DNA of 41,294 nucleotides from a virus, in UHGV virus genome UHGV-0110231. The stretch is one strand, 5' to 3'. The notes beneath the pieces were generated by a model. The model saw only the letters and a list, made by a program, of their open reading frames with translations, was not told where the DNA came from and did no database searches. A program made the translations under genes and the position numbers. Below are positions 189 to 36,921 of the stretch, one piece after another (the stretch's first letter is position 1; every line of letters starts with the position of its first letter).

Positions 189-203
189 TTACCTTAAAGG
201 TAT
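189..203. promoter_or_regulatory. Operator-like palindrome TTACC-N5-GGTAt upstream of int
   Basis: TTACCTTAAAGGTAT; member of the recurrent TTACC-N5-GGTAA family. Confidence 0.4.
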
Positions 204-3922: not shown

Positions 3923-4740
3923 ACGTACATATCCTGTTTACGTGCCCAGTCAGGGCGTTTAATAATTTCCACGCCGCCCCATTCATCATTGATGCGGCAT
4001 TCGTGATAGGTATTCAGATCCCGGCGGAACAGAGCGTGCCCGGCATCGACATCCGGCGCATCCAGCTCGAACACGCGTACCGGATACCGACCACAATCAA
4101 TGCTTTCGCTCACGGCAAGAAAGAAAAAACCATGCGACTGACCAGTAACCCTCATCGCTCCTTCGCGGTACATTGCGTCCTGCACGTGGTAGCGGAATTC
4201 CTCGATGTGGCGTGCAAAACGATCCATATCTGCAACCTTTTTCACGTCGACGATCACGTTGTGCTCGTTCAGCCATTTGTCTGGACGAATTCGGCACAAC
4301 TCACCAGTCTCTTCATCATTCCAGTACATTGATGCTTCGCAGTAACCAGGTGCTTCCAGCATCCAGCGTGCCGCCGGGTGAGCCATTGCGCTATCACGCA
4401 TCAGCTCCAGTTTCCGCCACTGCTCGGCATCAAGTACCGTAATCCCCATATCCGCTACATCACGAAGAAATGCTTCTTCGTCAGCTTTACCTTGTTTCGT
4501 CCGACGATCGAACTTCGGTGAAACAATGAAGCGTTTGTCGAATTCTCCAGGCTCCAGAAGCAGACAGTGCAATGCGGTTCCCATATCCAGTGCAGACTTT
4601 TTCTCTTCGTCTTCTGGTGCTGCCTGAACCCATTTAAGAAGCGCCGGATTCTTGGCAACCATGTCCAGTTGCGACTTACTCACGCCGTCACCGGCGTGGT
4701 AGTCTTCGTTGCTGATGTCGAAATAAATTCCCGGTTTCAT
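3919..4740 (-). CDS. PD-(D/E)XK recombination exonuclease (YqaJ-like)
   Basis: 273 aa; YqaJ-like N-terminus (FDISNEDYHAGDGVSKSQL) and D...E.K signature (IVDVKK); 4-nt overlap with the annealase gene. Confidence 0.65.
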   Translation of the reverse strand: MKPGIYFDISNEDYHAGDGVSKSQLDMVAKNPALLKWVQAAPEDEEKKSALDMGTALHCLLLEPGEFDKRFIVSPKFDRRTKQGKADEEAFLRDVADMGITVLDAEQWRKLELMRDSAMAHPAARWMLEAPGYCEASMYWNDEETGELCRIRPDKWLNEHNVIVDVKKVADMDRFARHIEEFRYHVQDAMYREGAMRVTGQSHGFFFLAVSESIDCGRYPVRVFELDAPDVDAGHALFRRDLNTYHECRINDEWGGVEIIKRPDWARKQDMYV

Positions 4741-5036
4741 GCCGCTTCCCTCTGCCCATCAATCCGATCCGCCAGATCCCAGCGGGCGATAATTGCCATT
4801 GCCTCGCGCCGGTAGGCATCCATAAGTTCTTCGAACTCAGGGCTGTCTTTAGCTGCCTCCAGCACTTCCTGGCGAACTCCTTTGCCTGTTACAGCGTCAA
4901 AAGTTGAGGCCAGTTGATGAAGCCGGATGCTCTCGATCAGTTCAACTTGTCGGTCATATAGCTGTTCTGACAGGCGGTAGTCCTTGTCGAATGCCAGCAT
5001 GATTTTTTGAAGATTTTTCTGCTGATTAACGTTCAT
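4737..5036 (-). CDS. Hypothetical early protein
   Basis: ORF with GGGAGGG Shine-Dalgarno before the ATG at 5036; coupled to the exonuclease gene. Confidence 0.45.
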   Translation of the reverse strand: MNVNQQKNLQKIMLAFDKDYRLSEQLYDRQVELIESIRLHQLASTFDAVTGKGVRQEVLEAAKDSPEFEELMDAYRREAMAIIARWDLADRIDGQREAA

Positions 5037-5038
5037 TA

Positions 5039-5191
5039 TCAGCCCTCCCATATCTCGTTATCGTTGGCCACATCGCGAGCTTCTTTGCTGACGAAAGCCC
5101 ACTTAATGCCTTCCTGTAAGGTGCGGAACTTCCAGCTCATGAATCCGCATGCAGTAACGCAGTACCAACCGTTGATGATTTTCCACTGCAT
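5039..5191 (-). CDS. Hypothetical small protein (50 aa, Trp/Cys-rich)
   Basis: Not in the ORF track (under 60 aa); has a GAGG Shine-Dalgarno; first gene after the putative leftward promoter. Confidence 0.3.
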   Translation of the reverse strand: MQWKIINGWYCVTACGFMSWKFRTLQEGIKWAFVSKEARDVANDNEIWEG

Positions 5192-5210
5192 AACTTGTTA
5201 CCTCGGTCTG

Positions 5211-5225
5211 TTACCGTTGAGGTAA
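5211..5225. promoter_or_regulatory. Operator-like palindrome (putative PL region)
   Basis: TTACCGTTGAGGTAA; nested in a larger inverted repeat TTACCTC...GAGGTAA. Confidence 0.5.
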
Positions 5226-5272
5226 TAATTATGCGTATTTGGTTTGATGTCAATAGATATGAGTTGAAAAAA

Positions 5273-5287
5273 TTACCTATTAGGTAA
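5273..5287. promoter_or_regulatory. Operator-like palindrome (putative PL region)
   Basis: TTACCTATTAGGTAA, a perfect TTACC-N5-GGTAA. Confidence 0.5.
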
Positions 5288-5300
5288 TAGTATAGGCAAT

Positions 5301-5322
5301 AAAAAAGCCGCCAGAAGGCGGC
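5301..5322 (-). terminator. Rho-independent terminator after the repressor gene
   Basis: Hairpin GCCGCC-agaa-GGCGGC followed by a T-run on the minus strand. Confidence 0.6.
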
Positions 5323-5344
5323 TTACTTACTGAAAAGTATGATT

Positions 5345-5929
5345 TTATTGTTTGTTTTTTTCGTTCTGGTTGATGACAAATTCAATGTAACTTTCGATCT
5401 TTGCTTTCTCGGTTTCGGGTAACAATGCGTAGCGCGAGCGGTCATAGTTGATGGTCGCAGGGTCGTGCGGGTGAATCAGTAATTCATAGCCGTGACGCCC
5501 GAATGCGGATGCAACATTCTCCAGGGTGGAAATGGAAACGCTGACCTCATTGTTTAACAGGCGGCTGATTGTCACCTGGGCGACGCCGGATGCGCGGTGA
5601 AGTTTTCCCTGTGTTGAAAGGTCGCGGCTTTCGCTCATCCAGCGTTCCAGGTTGTGAGCCGCCAGCTGACCAATGTCGCTTGGGCCGACAGGCTGAAAAC
5701 CTTCCTGAGAAAGCGAGCGATCGATATCAAGCCAGTTACGGGGTTTATTGGCGGCAGCTTCAATTTTTCGCGCAACCTGGTCGCCGATAACCTTCTTGCC
5801 AAGAGCCCAGCGGTTTACCAGATTTGCCTGAGTTCCAAGTTTTTCTGCCATCCGCGTCTGAACACCATTGAATTCACGGTCGATCAAGTCGTTGAGATTT
5901 TGCCTGCGGACGTCCTGGATACTTTTCAT
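5345..5929 (-). CDS. Prophage repressor with two HTH (XRE-type) domains and no recognisable S24 peptidase domain
   Basis: 194 aa; N-terminal HTH (MAEKLGTQANLVNRWALGKK) and a second HTH (ASGVAQVTISRLLNNEVSVSISTLENVASAFG); divergent from the cro-like gene across an operator cluster. Confidence 0.7.
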   Translation of the reverse strand: MKSIQDVRRQNLNDLIDREFNGVQTRMAEKLGTQANLVNRWALGKKVIGDQVARKIEAAANKPRNWLDIDRSLSQEGFQPVGPSDIGQLAAHNLERWMSESRDLSTQGKLHRASGVAQVTISRLLNNEVSVSISTLENVASAFGRHGYELLIHPHDPATINYDRSRYALLPETEKAKIESYIEFVINQNEKNKQ

Positions 5930-5984
5930 TTTCTGGAAAATCGCCTCGTATATGAATCAGTAGATGATTCAATTTAAAGCAATA

Positions 5985-5999
5985 TTACCCAACAGGTAA
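5985..5999. promoter_or_regulatory. Operator site 1 in the repressor/cro intergenic region
   Basis: TTACCCAACAGGTAA. Confidence 0.55.
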
Positions 6000-6001
6000 A
6001 T

Positions 6002-6016
6002 GCACCTCATAGGTAA
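6002..6016. promoter_or_regulatory. Operator site 2 (degenerate)
   Basis: GCACCTCATAGGTAA. Confidence 0.4.
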
Positions 6017-6032
6017 CTATCCTTGATTTTTG

Positions 6033-6047
6033 TTACCTTATGGGTGA
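6033..6047. promoter_or_regulatory. Operator site 3, between the putative -35 (TTGATT) and -10 (GAATAT) of a rightward promoter
   Basis: TTACCTTATGGGTGA. Confidence 0.5.
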
Positions 6048-6083
6048 ATATTTATTATCTGAAATAAATATCAGGCAATAGCT

Positions 6084-6314
6084 ATGAGCGATAACGGACA
6101 TTTCGATTTCAAAAAGCACTGGCTTGCACTTACTCCGGATGAGCGTGAAGCCTTCGCACAGGAAGCCGGAACGACGAGTCACTATATCCAGACTCACTTA
6201 ACAGGTAAGCGCAAAATGCCAGGTAAAGTATTGATGAATGGGCTTTTTAAAGCCTGTAAAACAAGACAATGGCTGCGCTCAAAAGCAGAACTGGCATACT
6301 TCTTCTACTCATGA
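6084..6314 (+). CDS. Cro-like HTH regulator
   Basis: 76 aa; first rightward gene after the operators; HTH-like segment EAGTTSHYIQTHLTGKRKMP. Confidence 0.55.
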   Translation: MSDNGHFDFKKHWLALTPDEREAFAQEAGTTSHYIQTHLTGKRKMPGKVLMNGLFKACKTRQWLRSKAELAYFFYS

Positions 6315-6336
6315 TATCCAGCCACAACCCTCTGTA

Positions 6337-6359
6337 GACCGCCATCCGGCGGTCTTTTC
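6337..6359 (+). terminator. Rho-independent terminator after the cro-like gene (tR1-like)
   Basis: Hairpin GACCGCC-atcc-GGCGGTC followed by TTTTC. Confidence 0.6.
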
Positions 6360-6369
6360 ATATCTATTC

Positions 6370-6384
6370 TTACCTCAAAGGTAA
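6370..6384. promoter_or_regulatory. Operator-like palindrome downstream of the terminator
   Basis: TTACCTCAAAGGTAA. Confidence 0.5.
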
Positions 6385-6464
6385 TAAAAAACCAAATCTG
6401 GTTGATCTTTTTTTTGTGTCAGCACAAAATAACCGTAATCCCAATACTAATAACAGGGCTTACC

Positions 6465-6665
6465 ATGGAAATCATTACACGTATTGATGCCGCAAAGCGC
6501 GGACTTAAACGCTACTACACCGGAAAACCATGTAAGCACGGACATGACAGTGAACGCTGGGTTTACAACGGACACTGTGTTGAGTGCACCATGGAATCAA
6601 ACCGTCGCATCAGGGCAGAGATTAAGCAGATCATGATTAATTCCTCCCCACAACACTCAAGCTGA
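6465..6665 (+). CDS. Small Cys/His-rich (zinc-binding?) protein in the cII position
   Basis: 66 aa; motif KPCKHGH...NGHCVEC. Confidence 0.45.
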   Translation: MEIITRIDAAKRGLKRYYTGKPCKHGHDSERWVYNGHCVECTMESNRRIRAEIKQIMINSSPQHSS

Positions 6666-6680
6666 TAGCGGAGATTAATC

Positions 6681-7496
6681 ATGAGCAGACATGCAACAGA
6701 TTGGGCCTGGGAGACAGATCCAGGTAGCTCATCATTAAAGCTCATACTGCTCTCGATGGCTGACAGAGCCGATGAATATAACCTCTGCTACCCCAGCATA
6801 GAACGCCTCGTTAAAGACACTTGCCTGAATAAAAAAACCGTGCAGGCCGGGCTTATATCGCTCATGAAAATGGGGCTTATTTCAGATACCGGAGAGAGAA
6901 AGGGAGCGACAAAAAGAGTGCGGGTTTTCTCTCTTAATATAACCAAAAACGGGAACATTAAAGGCAACCGGGAGGGTGGCAATGAACCCGAAAACGGTAA
7001 TGTTACCGAAAACGGGAATATACCCAAAAACGGGATGTTGAATGATCCCAAAAACGGGATGTTGAATGATCCCAAAAACGGGATCCAGAACCAGTCATAT
7101 AACCAGTCATTTAACCAAGAGAGGGAGAGCAGGACAAAAAACGGGGATTCTGTGCATCATGACCCCGGCGCAAACAACGCCGTGATGAATAACTTTGTTC
7201 CTCCTGGTGGGCCAGGGCAATTAGGCAAATTTGTCATGCATGAACAATGGCAGCCATCAGATGACTTTCTTCGGAAAAGCTCATTGCAGGGGATCTACCT
7301 GGACAGTCTGCCAACGGCACAGGAACTTGCAGAGTTCAGAATTTACTGGATGGCTGAGGGTAAGGCATACCATCAGGCACAGTGGGAGCAGAAGCTGGCA
7401 AGGCGGCTGCAGATTAGCAGACAGAAGCAATCAACATTACCTGATAACAACGTTCCGCACTGGAACAGCCCTGAAGCATGGGAGGATTTCTTGTGA
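6681..7496 (+). CDS. Replication initiator (lambda O-like replisome organiser) with N-terminal winged-helix domain
   Basis: 271 aa; N-terminal HTH; iterons embedded in the coding sequence, as in lambda O. Confidence 0.65.
   Translation: MSRHATDWAWETDPGSSSLKLILLSMADRADEYNLCYPSIERLVKDTCLNKKTVQAGLISLMKMGLISDTGERKGATKRVRVFSLNITKNGNIKGNREGGNEPENGNVTENGNIPKNGMLNDPKNGMLNDPKNGIQNQSYNQSFNQERESRTKNGDSVHHDPGANNAVMNNFVPPGGPGQLGKFVMHEQWQPSDDFLRKSSLQGIYLDSLPTAQELAEFRIYWMAEGKAYHQAQWEQKLARRLQISRQKQSTLPDNNVPHWNSPEAWEDFL
6943..7083. repeat. Putative replication origin iterons (CCAAAAACGGGA, at least 5 copies including two exact 24-bp tandem units)
   Basis: Copies at 6943, 7006, 7024, 7048 and 7072, plus variants at 6988 and 7134; they encode the PKNGMLND peptide repeats. 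Confidence 0.6.
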
Positions 7497-8278
7497 ACAA
7501 CGTTTTTACCGCGATACAAAACCGTGACGGAGAAGCCCTTTCTCGCATGTCAGGTTATGAGCATCAGTACACCAACAATGACAACGTGGTGAACATGTCA
7601 GCAGAGAGGCTTGTTGATGCCCTTTTCAAACAGCTGAAACAACTGTTTCCGGCGGCAGTGGTAACCAACCTGAAGACGCCAGAGCAGGAAGTTGCTGCAA
7701 AACAGCAGTGGATTGCTGCGTTTGCCGAAGGGGGGATCCGAACCCGTGAACAGGTTTCTGCTGGTATGCGCCACGCCCGCGCCAGTGAGTCTCCGTTCTG
7801 GCCGTCGCCAGGGCAATTCATCAAGTGGTGTAAAGACAGCAAGATGGTTCTTGGCGTCACCATTGACGATGTGATGGCGGAGTTTCACCGGTACAGCAAG
7901 GAAAAAAGTTTATATCCTGGTGGTCCCGAAAGATTCCCGTGGCGACATCCGGTTATGTACTGGGTCGTATGTGATACCCGCCGTGCAATGTATCAGCGCC
8001 AGCTTAGCGAGATTGAGGTTGAGAAACACGCGCGCAGGCTGCTCGATGATTGGGCGAAAAAGGTGGCTTCCGGACAGCAGATACCCGATCCGGTGATCAG
8101 CATACAGGCAAAGCCAGAACCCATGAGTACGCCTCCGGACACAGGGAGAGACGTTTACCATCCACCAGGGCGAAGTTTCGGGTGCATGCCTAACGCCGCC
8201 ACCCTTGGGGGAATAACACCGGCGCAGTGGCTGATGGAGGAATACAGGCGGGGAAAGGCGTCAGGATTTATCAAGTAA
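7493..8278 (+). CDS. Replication protein (lambda P-like helicase-loader position)
   Basis: GTG start with GGGAGGA Shine-Dalgarno (alternative ATG at 7478); immediately follows and overlaps the O-like gene. Confidence 0.5.
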   Translation: MNNVFTAIQNRDGEALSRMSGYEHQYTNNDNVVNMSAERLVDALFKQLKQLFPAAVVTNLKTPEQEVAAKQQWIAAFAEGGIRTREQVSAGMRHARASESPFWPSPGQFIKWCKDSKMVLGVTIDDVMAEFHRYSKEKSLYPGGPERFPWRHPVMYWVVCDTRRAMYQRQLSEIEVEKHARRLLDDWAKKVASGQQIPDPVISIQAKPEPMSTPPDTGRDVYHPPGRSFGCMPNAATLGGITPAQWLMEEYRRGKASGFIK

Positions 8279-8315
8279 TACCAGCGCGATAGCGCATTTT
8301 TTTACGTCTCGATAA

Positions 8316-8330
8316 TTACCTTAGAGGTAA
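8316..8330. promoter_or_regulatory. Operator-like palindrome
   Basis: TTACCTTAGAGGTAA. Confidence 0.5.
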
Positions 8331-8377
8331 TAAAATATTCTAAAATCTATTGATTTCGTGTCTTATGTGGTTTTTAA

Positions 8378-8392
8378 TTACCTAAGGGGTAA
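8378..8392. promoter_or_regulatory. Operator-like palindrome, 4 nt before the ATG at 8396
   Basis: TTACCTAAGGGGTAA. Confidence 0.5.
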
Positions 8393-8395
8393 ATC

Positions 8396-8743
8396 ATGAG
8401 AAAACAGATGCAGGCTCTTGGTCGACTCAAAACAGGCCAGATGAACAAAACAGAATCTGCGTATTGCCAGCACCTTGAGCTGCGTAAACGTGCAGGAGAA
8501 ATCGTCTGGTATCGATTTGAGGGTATCAAGCTGCGGTTAGCTGACAACACGTTCTATACGCCAGATTTTGCTGTGATGCTCGCCACCGGCGAGATGGAAC
8601 TGCACGAAGTGAAAGGGGGATTCTGGACCGATGACGCCAGAGTGAAAACCAAAGTCGCCGCAGATCAGTATCCGTTCCGAATCATCGGGGTAACGGTTAA
8701 GCCAAAGAAAGCAGGTGGTGGCTGGAACATCGAAGAGTTCTGA
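8396..8743 (+). CDS. Small PD-(D/E)XK-type nuclease (DUF1064-like; possible Holliday-junction resolvase)
   Basis: 115 aa; YTPDF ... ELHEVKG matches a D...E.K nuclease signature. Confidence 0.45.
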   Translation: MRKQMQALGRLKTGQMNKTESAYCQHLELRKRAGEIVWYRFEGIKLRLADNTFYTPDFAVMLATGEMELHEVKGGFWTDDARVKTKVAADQYPFRIIGVTVKPKKAGGGWNIEEF

Positions 8744-11387: not shown

Positions 11388-11509
11388 TGAACAAGTGCAA
11401 CGCTCTGCTTTATGCCATGGTGATTGGTTTCGGCCTGGCTGCTGGTATCCGGGTTTATATTGCCTGGGAGTCATTAATCAATCTGGCGTGGAGTGCGATT
11501 CGTGGCTAA
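11387..11509 (+). CDS. Small hydrophobic membrane peptide (40 aa)
   Basis: Not in the ORF track; GGAGGTG Shine-Dalgarno, TAATG overlap with the upstream stop; MNKCNALLYAMVIGFGLAAGIRVYIAW... Confidence 0.35.
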   Translation: MNKCNALLYAMVIGFGLAAGIRVYIAWESLINLAWSAIRG

Positions 11510-11840
11510 ATCCCCCGCAGAACGCAAAGCCGCGCAGCGCGCTCGGCAGTCAGCCGCCGGTGAGCGCAAAATTGAACTGGTGCTGGATAAGCAGGAGCAG
11601 GAAATGCTGGAGCGTAACTGTGCCGCCCGTCGCCCTGGTCGTGCGCCGTATGAAATGAGCGAATACATCGCGTTACTGATCCGCCAGGATGATGCACGCG
11701 TGCGCGGGCGTATAAAATCGATCAGCAGAAAACGTTGCGGTAAGTGCGGCGAGAGAGTTCCAGTTAATTCATGCCCGTGTAATGGTGACTCGCAATGCTG
11801 GGTGACTAAAGGCTGGCATGAAACGAAATTAATAGTGTGA
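11493..11840 (+). CDS. Basic protein with C-terminal Cys cluster (zinc ribbon); candidate late-gene regulator
   Basis: 115 aa; CGKCGERVPVNSCPCNGDSQC; last gene before a terminator and the terminase genes. Confidence 0.45.
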   Translation: MRFVAKSPAERKAAQRARQSAAGERKIELVLDKQEQEMLERNCAARRPGRAPYEMSEYIALLIRQDDARVRGRIKSISRKRCGKCGERVPVNSCPCNGDSQCWVTKGWHETKLIV

Positions 11841-11915: not shown

Positions 11916-11958
11916 GCATGGTACTATTACCACAACGGTAACTATTACCACGGTGGTT

Positions 11959-12555
11959 ATGATGCCTGCTGAACCTAAAACCTATAAACGCAAATCAACG
12001 CAATTTAAGCCGCTCACAGCAATGCAGGAGGCTTATTGCCAGTCATACATCAAAACGCCTGAAAACCAGACTCAGGCAGCGATTAACGCAGGATTCTCCC
12101 CAAACACAGCGGCAGTTAAAGCCAGTGTCATGATGCGCGATGAACGCATTCAAAAACGGATTGCCGAGTTGATGGAGGAGCGCAACAAACGAATGCGCGT
12201 CAGTGCCGATTACGTTCTCATGCGCCTGGTGGAGATCGACCAGATGGACGTGATTGATATCCTCAACGACGATGGGAGCCTTAAGCCAATCCGCGAGTGG
12301 CCGAAAATCTGGCGCACTACGCTTAGTGGCTTTGATCTGTCATCGACCATCATGAACATGAACGAGGATTCGATAGAGACAATCCTCAAAAAAATTAAAT
12401 GGCCTGACAAGGTGAAGAACCTCGAACTGATTGGTAAGCACGTCGACGTCAACGCATTCAAAGAACGCCTGGATGTTAATGTGAATGTGACAATTGCTGA
12501 TCGCATAGCGGCAGCCAGGAAGCGACTCAAAGAACGTCAGGATGGTAATCAGTGA
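11959..12555 (+). CDS. Terminase small subunit
   Basis: 198 aa; HTH-like N-terminal part (AINAGFSPNTAAVKASVMMRDERIQKRIAEL); immediately precedes and overlaps the large subunit gene. Confidence 0.7.
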   Translation: MMPAEPKTYKRKSTQFKPLTAMQEAYCQSYIKTPENQTQAAINAGFSPNTAAVKASVMMRDERIQKRIAELMEERNKRMRVSADYVLMRLVEIDQMDVIDILNDDGSLKPIREWPKIWRTTLSGFDLSSTIMNMNEDSIETILKKIKWPDKVKNLELIGKHVDVNAFKERLDVNVNVTIADRIAAARKRLKERQDGNQ

Positions 12556-15071: not shown

Positions 15072-15086
15072 TTACCTGAAAGGTAA
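15072..15086. promoter_or_regulatory. Operator-like palindrome upstream of the structural operon
   Basis: TTACCTGAAAGGTAA. Confidence 0.5.
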
Positions 15087-15176
15087 TAATTTGTGCGTTA
15101 AATGTCAACTATCTACGATAAATAAATCATATGTGGTTAAATTGGTAATAATTTAATTGCGTACGGAGTCATTGAT

Positions 15177-19568: not shown

Positions 19569-19904
19569 ATGTCAGGTGAGAAACCAAGATACCGCGTTCT
19601 GCGCCTCTCTCATATCCATAACACACTGTGGCCGGAGGGGGCAGAAATCGAATACGAAGGTGAGCCTGGTAGCGCACTGGAACCTGTTAACGATGCAGCC
19701 AGACAGGCAAAAGCAAAGGTAGCAGGAAAGGTGACTATGGCAGCAACCAGCACCAAAATCATCAACGATGTGTCAGATGATGGTGAACTGGATAAGCTCC
19801 GTGAAGAGTACGAATTGCTCTTTAACGAGAAGCCACACCATAACGCCAAAGCCGAAACGCTCCGCGAGAAGATCGCAGATAAGCGTAAAGAACTGGGCGT
19901 GTAA
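19569..19904 (+). CDS. Hypothetical structural-module protein
   Basis: AAGGTG Shine-Dalgarno; followed by a terminator. Confidence 0.45.
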   Translation: MSGEKPRYRVLRLSHIHNTLWPEGAEIEYEGEPGSALEPVNDAARQAKAKVAGKVTMAATSTKIINDVSDDGELDKLREEYELLFNEKPHHNAKAETLREKIADKRKELGV

Positions 19905-19920
19905 GCCTCGCGAATCAGAC

Positions 19921-31679: not shown

Positions 31680-31937
31680 TTACCGGGTTTGTTTTCGTAA
31701 TTGTTCGGCACAATAGTCGAGATGTGTTTGCAGATCCCGCATAGACATCTGTGAGCTGGTGACGTAGTTAATCAGTGCAGTCAGTTCGGCAAGTGGGCCA
31801 TCGACATTAAATCCATCCTTATCGAGATCCCGGAGTAATTTCATCAAGTGCGATCCTTCCACCAGTGACCTGACGCCTCCCGGCGTGTGAATCTTTTCGG
31901 TAAATCCGTCTTCCAGTGGATAGTGATACTGCTGCAT
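31680..31937 (-). CDS. Small protein (85 aa) under a LexA-box promoter; candidate SOS-inducible antirepressor or effector
   Basis: ATG at 31937 with GGAG Shine-Dalgarno; LexA box 20 nt upstream; the longer ORF to 32003 would place the box inside the coding sequence. Confidence 0.5.
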   Translation of the reverse strand: MQQYHYPLEDGFTEKIHTPGGVRSLVEGSHLMKLLRDLDKDGFNVDGPLAELTALINYVTSSQMSMRDLQTHLDYCAEQLRKQTR

Positions 31938-31956: not shown

Positions 31957-31976
31957 AACTGTATAAATGTACAGTA
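31957..31976. promoter_or_regulatory. LexA (SOS) box
   Basis: AACTGTATAAATGTACAGTA against consensus TACTGTATATATATACAGTA; CTGT-N8-ACAG intact. Confidence 0.7.
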
Positions 31977-32023
31977 GCAAATAATTTGTTTGCTATCCAG
32001 CACGTTTTGCTAATCACCTGAAA

Positions 32024-32038
32024 GGTAATATCTGTTCG
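32024..32038. promoter_or_regulatory. Operator-like palindrome in the divergent region before the tailspike
   Basis: TCACCTGAAAGGTAA. Confidence 0.45.
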
Positions 32039-32132
32039 TATTCATGAGCTATATATCCATATATGGTTTTTCAGGTAATAGAATAACCAGATATGCGGCG
32101 CAACGGGTGCTGCGACTATCTGGAGATTTAAC

Positions 32133-36801: not shown

Positions 36802-36816
36802 TCACCCAGAAGGTAA
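36802..36816. promoter_or_regulatory. Operator-like palindrome between the acyltransferase and the lysis cassette
   Basis: TCACCCAGAAGGTAA. Confidence 0.45.
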
Positions 36817-36921
36817 TTTTGGTAAGAACAATTTTGGGTATGTTTAACCACATATGGTTTATTGTGTATGATGAACTCACCAACTAAGGGGGTTCTTTAT
36901 GCGTATTAAACGGTGGTCACT

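Follow-up and report, generated by a model that had tools for sequence, protein, structure and literature searches.

A lytic switch built from Rep, Ant and LexA was reportedly described for the Salmonella phage SPC32H by Kim and Ryu in 2013 and by Kim et al. in 2016, with PDB entries 5D50 and 5D4Z. In the RefSeq record of the related phage epsilon15 (NC_004775), seven sites are annotated as protein_bind with the label "repressor" and the note "lysogeny", and all seven annotated ranges contain a match to the palindrome TTACC-N5-GGTAA, indicating that its role as a repressor operator among these phages had already been recognised; the phiV10 record lacks operator annotations. According to two publications, SPC32H Rep is a tetramer that binds palindromic sites via N-terminal domain pairs from different dimers (PMC9638917), its C-terminal domain provides for tetramerisation and Ant binding (PMC9986798), and Ant is itself a tetramer that breaks the Rep tetramer (PMC9638917, PMC9986798). 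When a phiV10-type Rep was overexpressed (phage vB_EcoP_ZX5), free phage was abolished and the endolysin and holin transcripts fell by more than 99.9% (PMC9782041). Furthermore, the Gifsy and Fels prophages of Salmonella carry non-cleavable repressors and respond to SOS through an antirepressor gene that is repressed by LexA (Lemire et al. 2011, PMC3121763).

We analysed a virus genome of 41,294 nucleotides (UHGV-0110231), here called the window in its full length, which, judged by identity and gene order, is a prophage of the phiV10 type within the genus Uetakevirus. Over region 4700-8500 it shares 98% identity with Escherichia phage phiV10 and with several sibling phages of that genus, and the genes follow the order of phiV10 and epsilon15, with int, the leftward early operon, the repressor, a cro-like gene and the replication genes, and then terminase, structural genes, ant, tailspike and lysis. 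The immunity region was found in 540 of 5426 complete E. coli genomes.

We found that the window contains eight perfect copies of TTACC-N5-GGTAA, starting at 5211, 5273, 5985, 6370, 8316, 8378, 11927 and 15072, against 0.03 expected, and none of 100 shuffles reached eight. When one mismatch is allowed, there are 13 copies against 0.8 expected from the shuffles, the additional ones starting at 189, 6033, 11945, 32014 and 36802. A chance origin of the motif is ruled out by these counts, and the 15-bp motif proposed in the initial annotation thus stands far above chance. The perfect sites that it placed at 5985, 6370, 5211 and 5273 were returned by the motif scan exactly as stated, but its restriction of the motif to an OR/OL cluster passed over 8316, 8378, 11927, 11945, 15072, 32014, 36802 and a doubtful site at 189, so that the cluster belongs to a set distributed over the genome. 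There are 14 credible sites in the window, all 14 of them intergenic, and they are the top 14 candidates of a weight matrix trained on other genomes alone, with the site at 6002 in rank 14 and separated by a modest gap from the next candidates (10.9 vs 8.5). The extended consensus is A-TTACC-nnWnn-GGTAA-T, in which A or T occupies the centre of 96% of the sites. Text searches of the literature for the motif returned nothing useful.

Across related phages, the motif is present at nine orthologous loci common to the window, epsilon15 (which has 11 perfect copies), SPC32H and Tyrion. These are one upstream of int, the pair at the leftward promoter, the three sites between rep and the cro-like gene, one after the cro-like terminator, a pair after the replication genes, the terminase pair, one before the portal/head genes, one between ant and tailspike and one before the lysis cassette. 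Additionally, the sites of the immunity region recur in six further enterobacterial prophages (Superficieibacter, Erwinia, Klebsiella, two species of Citrobacter, and Scandinavium), the Rep proteins of which are 41-75% identical to that of the window; in these, the OR sites lie at approximately -70, -86 and -117 relative to the start of rep, the downstream pair has a spacing of 61-63 bp, and in five of the six a second pair, approximately 2.3-2.7 kb upstream, is spaced by 62 bp. A scan of viral contigs with Rep kept 80 loci, in all of which Rep was 99-100% identical to the query, so this set offered no diversity and was used for a polymorphism test, with 38 distinct sequences of close relatives and the six sites of the immunity region as the sample. 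Among these relatives, two of 60 half-site positions were variable, compared with 13 of 30 spacer positions and 87 of 367 other intergenic positions (Fisher p = 5e-6 and 1e-4, respectively). The operator half-sites are under selection.

The leftward gene rep (5345..5929, minus strand) encodes a prophage repressor of 194 aa, a homologue of SPC32H Rep that matches PDB 5D50_A over residues 1-190 (phmmer E=4e-42) and also 5D4Z, the match to the latter joining its C-terminal part to SPC32H Rep residues 92-198. Pfam places HTH_3 at 106-147 and a weak YdaS-like match at 21-61, giving two helix-turn-helix-like regions, and returns no match for Peptidase_S24, the autocleavage domain. Rep is 43-78% identical to the proteins of epsilon15, SPC32H and Tyrion (43% to those of epsilon15 and SPC32H), and an unchanged NLVNRW segment, the presumed recognition helix, is found in all three. 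In the genomes that bear the motif, this segment of Rep reads NLVNRW (TLVNRW in one), even where the overall identity is 43%, and the motif is absent where distant Rep homologues carry other residues at this position. No alternative palindromes were found at the Rep loci of Paraburkholderia, Hydrogenovibrio and Thiomicrospira, and the link between operator and helix is therefore one of presence versus absence and not of full covariation.

This association also bears on a reading in which the palindrome is the target of a host factor, of a phage DNA methyltransferase or of a restriction-type enzyme. Bipartite palindromes with a fixed spacer do resemble some such targets, and a methyltransferase homologue is among the prophage genes (1691-2341; compare phiV10), but the motif tracks Rep NLVNRW across host genera and is missing from loci with a divergent Rep, and the 14 intergenic sites are adjacent to promoters in a fixed architecture, which makes this reading extremely improbable. 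We know of no E. coli regulator with a TTACC-N5-GGTAA consensus. The reading of the sites as repressor operators, which the initial annotation had put forward, is favoured by the repressor annotation of the orthologous epsilon15 sites and by the SPC32H-type Rep encoded here.

Three of the operators lie between the divergent repressor and cro-like genes, where the overlap with the rightward promoter is clear and that with the rep promoter is a weak consensus match. OR site 1 (5985..5999; TTACCCAACAGGTAA) is perfect and is situated in the spacer of a candidate leftward rep promoter (5971..6000, minus strand; TTTACC-18-TAAATT, a weak match of 8/12), the putative -10 block of which, AATTTAAA, is conserved in four phages; in 10 genomes, orthologues of the site precede the start of rep by approximately 70 bp. 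OR site 2 (6002..6016; GCACCTCATAGGTAA), at 17 bp from site 1, is degenerate, with two mismatches (GCACC...GGTAA). Tyrion has the same variant at the same position, and epsilon15 and SPC32H have a perfect copy there. Among the 38 relatives its half-sites are invariant while three of the five spacer positions vary, and for this reason, together with the presence of a site there in relatives, we regard it as supported despite the two mismatches. OR site 3 (6033..6047; TTACCTTATGGGTGA), with one mismatch (GGTGA), falls between the -35 and -10 elements of the rightward promoter, a position that is kept in all relatives compared. Site 3 mirrors site 2, and each of the two has its perfect half on the side towards the other. 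The start-to-start spacings are 17 and 31 bp, and the 17-21 bp first given for 5985, 6002 and 6033 has to be corrected; the three sites themselves are all present between the divergent genes, but 6033 has one mismatch and 6002 has two.

The candidate rightward promoter PR (6023..6052, plus strand) consists of TTGATT, a spacer of 17-18 nt and GAATAT or AATATT. The hexamers that had been proposed as its -35 and -10, TTGATT (6023-6028) and GAATAT (6046-6051), can both be read in the sequence with site 6033 between them. A consensus scan gives TTGATT-18-AATATT a score of 8/12, and the best match of the promoter tool is an alternative rightward promoter, TTGTTA-17-TATTAT, at 6030-6058. The -35 block of PR, TGATTTTT, is invariant in four aligned phages. 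Promoter assignments throughout are consensus matches only. On the rightward transcript, the terminator that had been placed ahead of site 6370 is located at 6336..6355 (plus strand) by a terminator scan, as an intrinsic terminator after the cro-like gene that is also annotated in phiV10. It is followed by the perfect operator at 6370..6384, which precedes a promoter-like TTGATC-17-CAAAAT (6402-6430) and has counterparts with one mismatch in phiV10 and Tyrion and two in epsilon15.

The cro-like gene (6084..6314, plus strand; 76 aa), a homologue of epsilon15 gp39, is the one gene between PR and the terminator. Its product matches phrog_35, "transcriptional repressor" (E=5.6e-13), and no sequence match was obtained in Pfam, NCBIfam or PDB. 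A single-sequence AlphaFold2 model (mean pLDDT 81.6) predicts a five-helix bundle, for which Foldseek returned YdaS, the 434 repressor DNA-binding domain and controller proteins at TM 0.56-0.62, with E values of about 1 that are non-significant. The position of the gene and the predicted fold, itself a weak match, would fit a Cro analogue.

Such a protein could recognise the motif instead of Rep or alongside it, in the way that lambda Cro and the lambda repressor share their sites. It co-occurs with the motif in every genome checked for it, and co-occurrence alone therefore leaves it as a possible second binder. The gp39 homologue and the N-terminal domain of Rep share the helix-turn-helix type (27% identity over 41 aa), and between the window and epsilon15 gp39 is more conserved than Rep, with the sole DNA-level match of the immunity region covering gp39, a conservation that would fit a shared operator. 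However, the residues aligned to QANLVNRW of Rep, TSHYIQTH, are different over the NLVNRW segment, sites are also found at the terminase, head, tail and lysis units, where a repressor acting in the lytic phase would silence the late genes, and published work assigns the binding of palindromic sites to Rep (PMC9638917). We consider binding by the gp39 homologue in either form unlikely, and exclusive binding of the motif by it very unlikely; Rep is preferred as the protein that would occupy the sites.

To the left of rep, two perfect operators are associated with the candidate leftward early promoter PL (5225..5253, minus strand; TTGACA-17-AATTAT, 10/12 matches). The proximal operator (5211..5225) is centred at approximately +1 of PL and the distal one (5273..5287), 62 bp from it, at approximately -62, and operator 5211 opens with the T that closes the -10 (AATTAT, then TACC). 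The initial annotation had described these two sites as flanking the start of the leftward early operon, in agreement with PL at 5253..5225 between them. The spacing of this OL pair is 61-63 bp in 10 genomes.

The same arrangement is observed at a second pair, with a distal operator downstream of the replication genes (8316..8330, perfect) and a proximal operator just before the DUF1064 gene at 8396 (8378..8392, perfect). Here the candidate promoter is TTGATT (8350)-17-TTTAAT (8373-8378), and the last T of its -10 starts operator 8378. TCGATA-16-TAAAAT (8309-8336) was also considered as the promoter of this pair and was dropped in favour of TTGATT-17-TTTAAT, because only the hexamers of the latter lie in -35 and -10 blocks that are conserved in four phages. 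Orthologues of the second pair at 62 bp are found in phiV10, epsilon15, SPC32H, Tyrion and the prophage loci L085-L088 and L090. Overall, the 62-bp spacing holds at both loci of the window, in phiV10 (second pair), epsilon15, SPC32H and Tyrion, and within 1 bp in the six other prophages.

At the terminase start, a perfect operator (11927..11941) follows an extended -10, TGgTACTAT, the last T of which is the first T of the site; its epsilon15 counterpart is annotated as repressor binding (12-27). At three promoters, namely PL, the post-replication promoter and the terminase promoter, the -10 and the operator thus overlap by a single T, and this common register would place the operator over the transcription start. 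At PL and at the post-replication promoter the second operator is exactly 62 bp upstream, whereas at terminase it is instead 18 bp downstream (11945..11959, one mismatch), with counterparts that have one mismatch in epsilon15 and Tyrion and two in SPC32H.

Further operators are found at the other late units. A perfect site upstream of the portal/head operon (15072..15086) is the orthologue of the annotated epsilon15 site 2931-2947, and a TCACC variant between the divergent ant and tailspike genes (32014..32028) is the orthologue of the annotated epsilon15 site 19895-19911. Another TCACC variant lies upstream of the lysis cassette (36802..36816), with orthologues in epsilon15, SPC32H, Tyrion and phiV10. 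Not every late-operon site shares this register with a recognisable sigma-70 promoter, and the late sites may have another mode of action, such as that of roadblocks or auxiliary sites. A terminator delimits each transcription unit, and one or more operators of its own stand at its beginning.

The site upstream of int (189..203; TTACCTTAAAGGTAT, one mismatch) is doubtful. The same mismatch is present in all four phages, within a block that is conserved throughout, and the epsilon15 counterpart abuts an annotated integrase-binding site. As an operator of int it was downgraded on account of this surrounding conservation and the adjoining integrase-binding site; it may instead belong to an arm of attP.

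Between the structural genes and the tailspike gene, ant (31680..31937, minus strand) encodes a small antirepressor of 85 aa in the same position as the SPC32H ant (SPC32H_020), and its product matches PDB 5D50_E, "Anti-repressor protein" (phmmer E=4.4e-46). Just upstream of ant there is a LexA box (31957..31976; AACTGTATAAATGTACAGTA, one mismatch), the single such site in the window, which is conserved in four phages and which, from its position, would overlap the ant promoter.

These genes weigh on the lambda-type alternative, a bistable CI/Cro switch with competition at OR and OL only, autocleavage stimulated by RecA and indirect control of the late genes. Its local features are in place, since rep and the cro-like gene are divergent with three sites between them, one of which is inside PR, two sites are found at the leftward promoter, and the cro-like protein has a lambda-repressor-like helical fold (a weak match) and aligns to the helix-turn-helix of Rep. 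However, Rep has no Peptidase_S24 match, an SPC32H-type Rep is present together with an Ant partner and a LexA box, eight further sites are distributed over six other loci, late operons included, and the PR transcript terminates after one gene. We therefore regard a lambda-type switch as highly improbable. The OR/OL layout suggested by the initial annotation is retained in its local form, with a three-site OR and a two-site OL, but not as a switch of the lambda type, given the absent S24 match, the Ant and LexA elements and the dispersed operators.

Overall, we consider it probable, and the best explanation of the data, that the sites are operators of an SPC32H/epsilon15-type Rep placed at nearly every transcription unit, with induction driven by Ant. 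In the lysogen, Rep tetramers with two DNA-binding units each (N-terminal domain pairs) would occupy these operators. OR site 3, inside PR, would block RNA polymerase, and OR sites 1 and 2, over and upstream of the weak rep promoter, would probably serve autoregulation of rep, for which the position of site 1 within the promoter-like spacer and the conserved -10 block suggest a negative sign. At PL and at the post-replication promoter, one operator would lie over the start and the second 62 bp upstream. As 62 bp amounts to approximately six helical turns, both operators of a pair would be on the same face of the DNA, and with its two DNA-binding units one Rep tetramer could then bridge the pair and enclose the promoter, which the conserved spacing suggests as the simplest reading. 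The terminase, head, tailspike/ant and lysis units would be held by single operators or by operators paired at 18 bp, and since each unit is terminator-bounded and has its own operator, Rep appears to repress them directly and not through a cascade. A loop of 62 bp would be very tight, and adjacent sites at 17-18 bp from each other fall on different helix faces.

Upon DNA damage, LexA would be lost from the ant promoter and Ant would be made, and the binding of Ant to Rep would release Rep from all operators at once, so that induction probably proceeds via the LexA-controlled antirepressor without cleavage of Rep. We infer promoter usage, binding, looping and autoregulation in this scheme from sequence. 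The more specific proposition, that one tetramer engages each 62-bp pair at the two early promoters in a six-turn micro-loop and that Rep directly locks every unit, late operons included, is put forward tentatively and seems to us somewhat less probable than its opposite. If true, it would give a flat, P1-like hierarchy in a lambdoid-looking podovirus.

The switch is of an ordinary and known kind, with operators annotated in epsilon15 and Rep and Ant solved structurally in SPC32H, and the conceptual gain is little, since publications on epsilon15 and SPC32H already cover the motif, the family of the repressor and the mechanism of the antirepressor. The conserved 62-bp bracket and the shared register of -10 and operator may be previously undescribed and are modest refinements; the bracket, at two promoters, bears on the way in which DNA is engaged by a repressor tetramer whose two DNA-binding units are assembled in trans. 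Furthermore, the operator map aids the annotation of a very common prophage and the prediction of its immunity group and SOS inducibility.

The window shares with lambda a repressor gene that diverges from a small helix-turn-helix gene, three operators between them in a region overlapping promoters, operators at the leftward early promoter and, by analogy, palindromic sites for helix-turn-helix dimers, with cooperative or long-range repressor contacts likely. It differs in a Rep without an autocleavage domain, such that an antirepressor would drive induction, in a site of 15 bp instead of 17 bp, in operators that are also present at late operons, in a PR that transcribes one gene before the terminator, and in operator pairs that bracket promoters at +1 and -62.

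Phage P1 and its C1 repressor resemble the window in the many operators scattered over the genome, the direct control of separate units and inactivation by an antirepressor. In P1, however, the operators are asymmetric, 17 bp long and bound by a C1 monomer, the sequence of C1 is unrelated, and the prophage state is that of a plasmid. The Gifsy and Fels prophages are comparable, by analogy, in combining a non-cleavable repressor with a LexA-controlled antirepressor, whereas their repressor and antirepressor families are different and they are lambdoid siphoviruses.

The closest correspondence is to SPC32H and epsilon15, with homologous Rep (E=4e-42) and Ant (E=4e-46), a LexA box at ant, identical half-sites, the same nine genomic positions and the same 62-bp pairs. 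Differences are found in Rep, which is just 43% identical, in OR site 2, which is degenerate (GCACC) in the window, in the OL sites, of which the window has two and epsilon15 and SPC32H have three, and in the site after the cro-like gene, which is perfect in the window and degenerate in epsilon15 and SPC32H. As Rep, Ant, the LexA box and the operator motif all match, the system of the window is, on these sequence comparisons, a member of the SPC32H/epsilon15-type Rep-Ant switch family.

Besides the predicted operators (TTACC-N5-GGTAA) of the prophage repressor Rep, we found a second conserved motif, approximately CATAT(G/A)TGGTT, at five loci of the window, lying at each of them about 10-45 bp downstream of the upstream predicted Rep operator. 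Copies precede the DUF1064 operon (8362-8372), the head/portal operon (15128-15138), the tailspike gene (32058-32068) and the lysis cassette (36846-36859), with a degenerate copy after the cro-like gene (6392-6402), and at the portal and tailspike loci the motif takes the longer form CATATrTGGTTnnnnnnGGTAATA. The motif count gave 7 matches versus 1.7 expected; in epsilon15 the motif occupies orthologous positions, and it is kept in all four aligned phages (the window, epsilon15, SPC32H and Tyrion). The motif may belong to a class of middle or late promoters, or may be bound by a phage activator, for which the 115-aa regulator at 11493-11840, a phrog_536 match, could serve as an example of a candidate.

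At the leftward promoter PL, an additional TTACC half-site (5198-5202) was observed 13 bp to the left of the proximal operator at 5211, with whose right half it forms a 10-nt inverted repeat; Tyrion also has a matching TTACC half-site. Upstream of int, the doubtful site at 189 is enclosed by a larger inverted repeat, GACGGTA ... TACCGTC (181-226), within a block that is kept in the four phages, and it adjoins an integrase-binding site annotated in epsilon15. Judged from this arrangement, site 189 is probably an attP arm element.

A LexA box (31957-31976) lies directly upstream of the small antirepressor gene (31680-31937, minus strand), which is homologous to SPC32H Ant. This adjacency predicts that SOS induction of the prophage would work through the antirepressor and not through cleavage of the repressor.

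Distant homologues of the Rep N-terminal domain are encoded at three Hydrogenovibrio and Thiomicrospira loci (L092, L094 and L095), in which the TTACC-N5-GGTAA motif is absent and a common upstream block, TTGTAGCAAAnTGGGTATATAT (approximately 2930-2960), is found instead; this block may be the homologues' own promoter or operator. In Rep itself, the best Pfam helix-turn-helix match is HTH_3 at residues 106-147, in the C-terminal half (residues 92-194). Annotation by Pfam would therefore mislead, picking the wrong DNA-binding domain, since a published description of SPC32H Rep (PMC9986798) assigns both tetramerisation and Ant binding to the corresponding C-terminal part, and likens its fold to the tetramerisation fold of p53.
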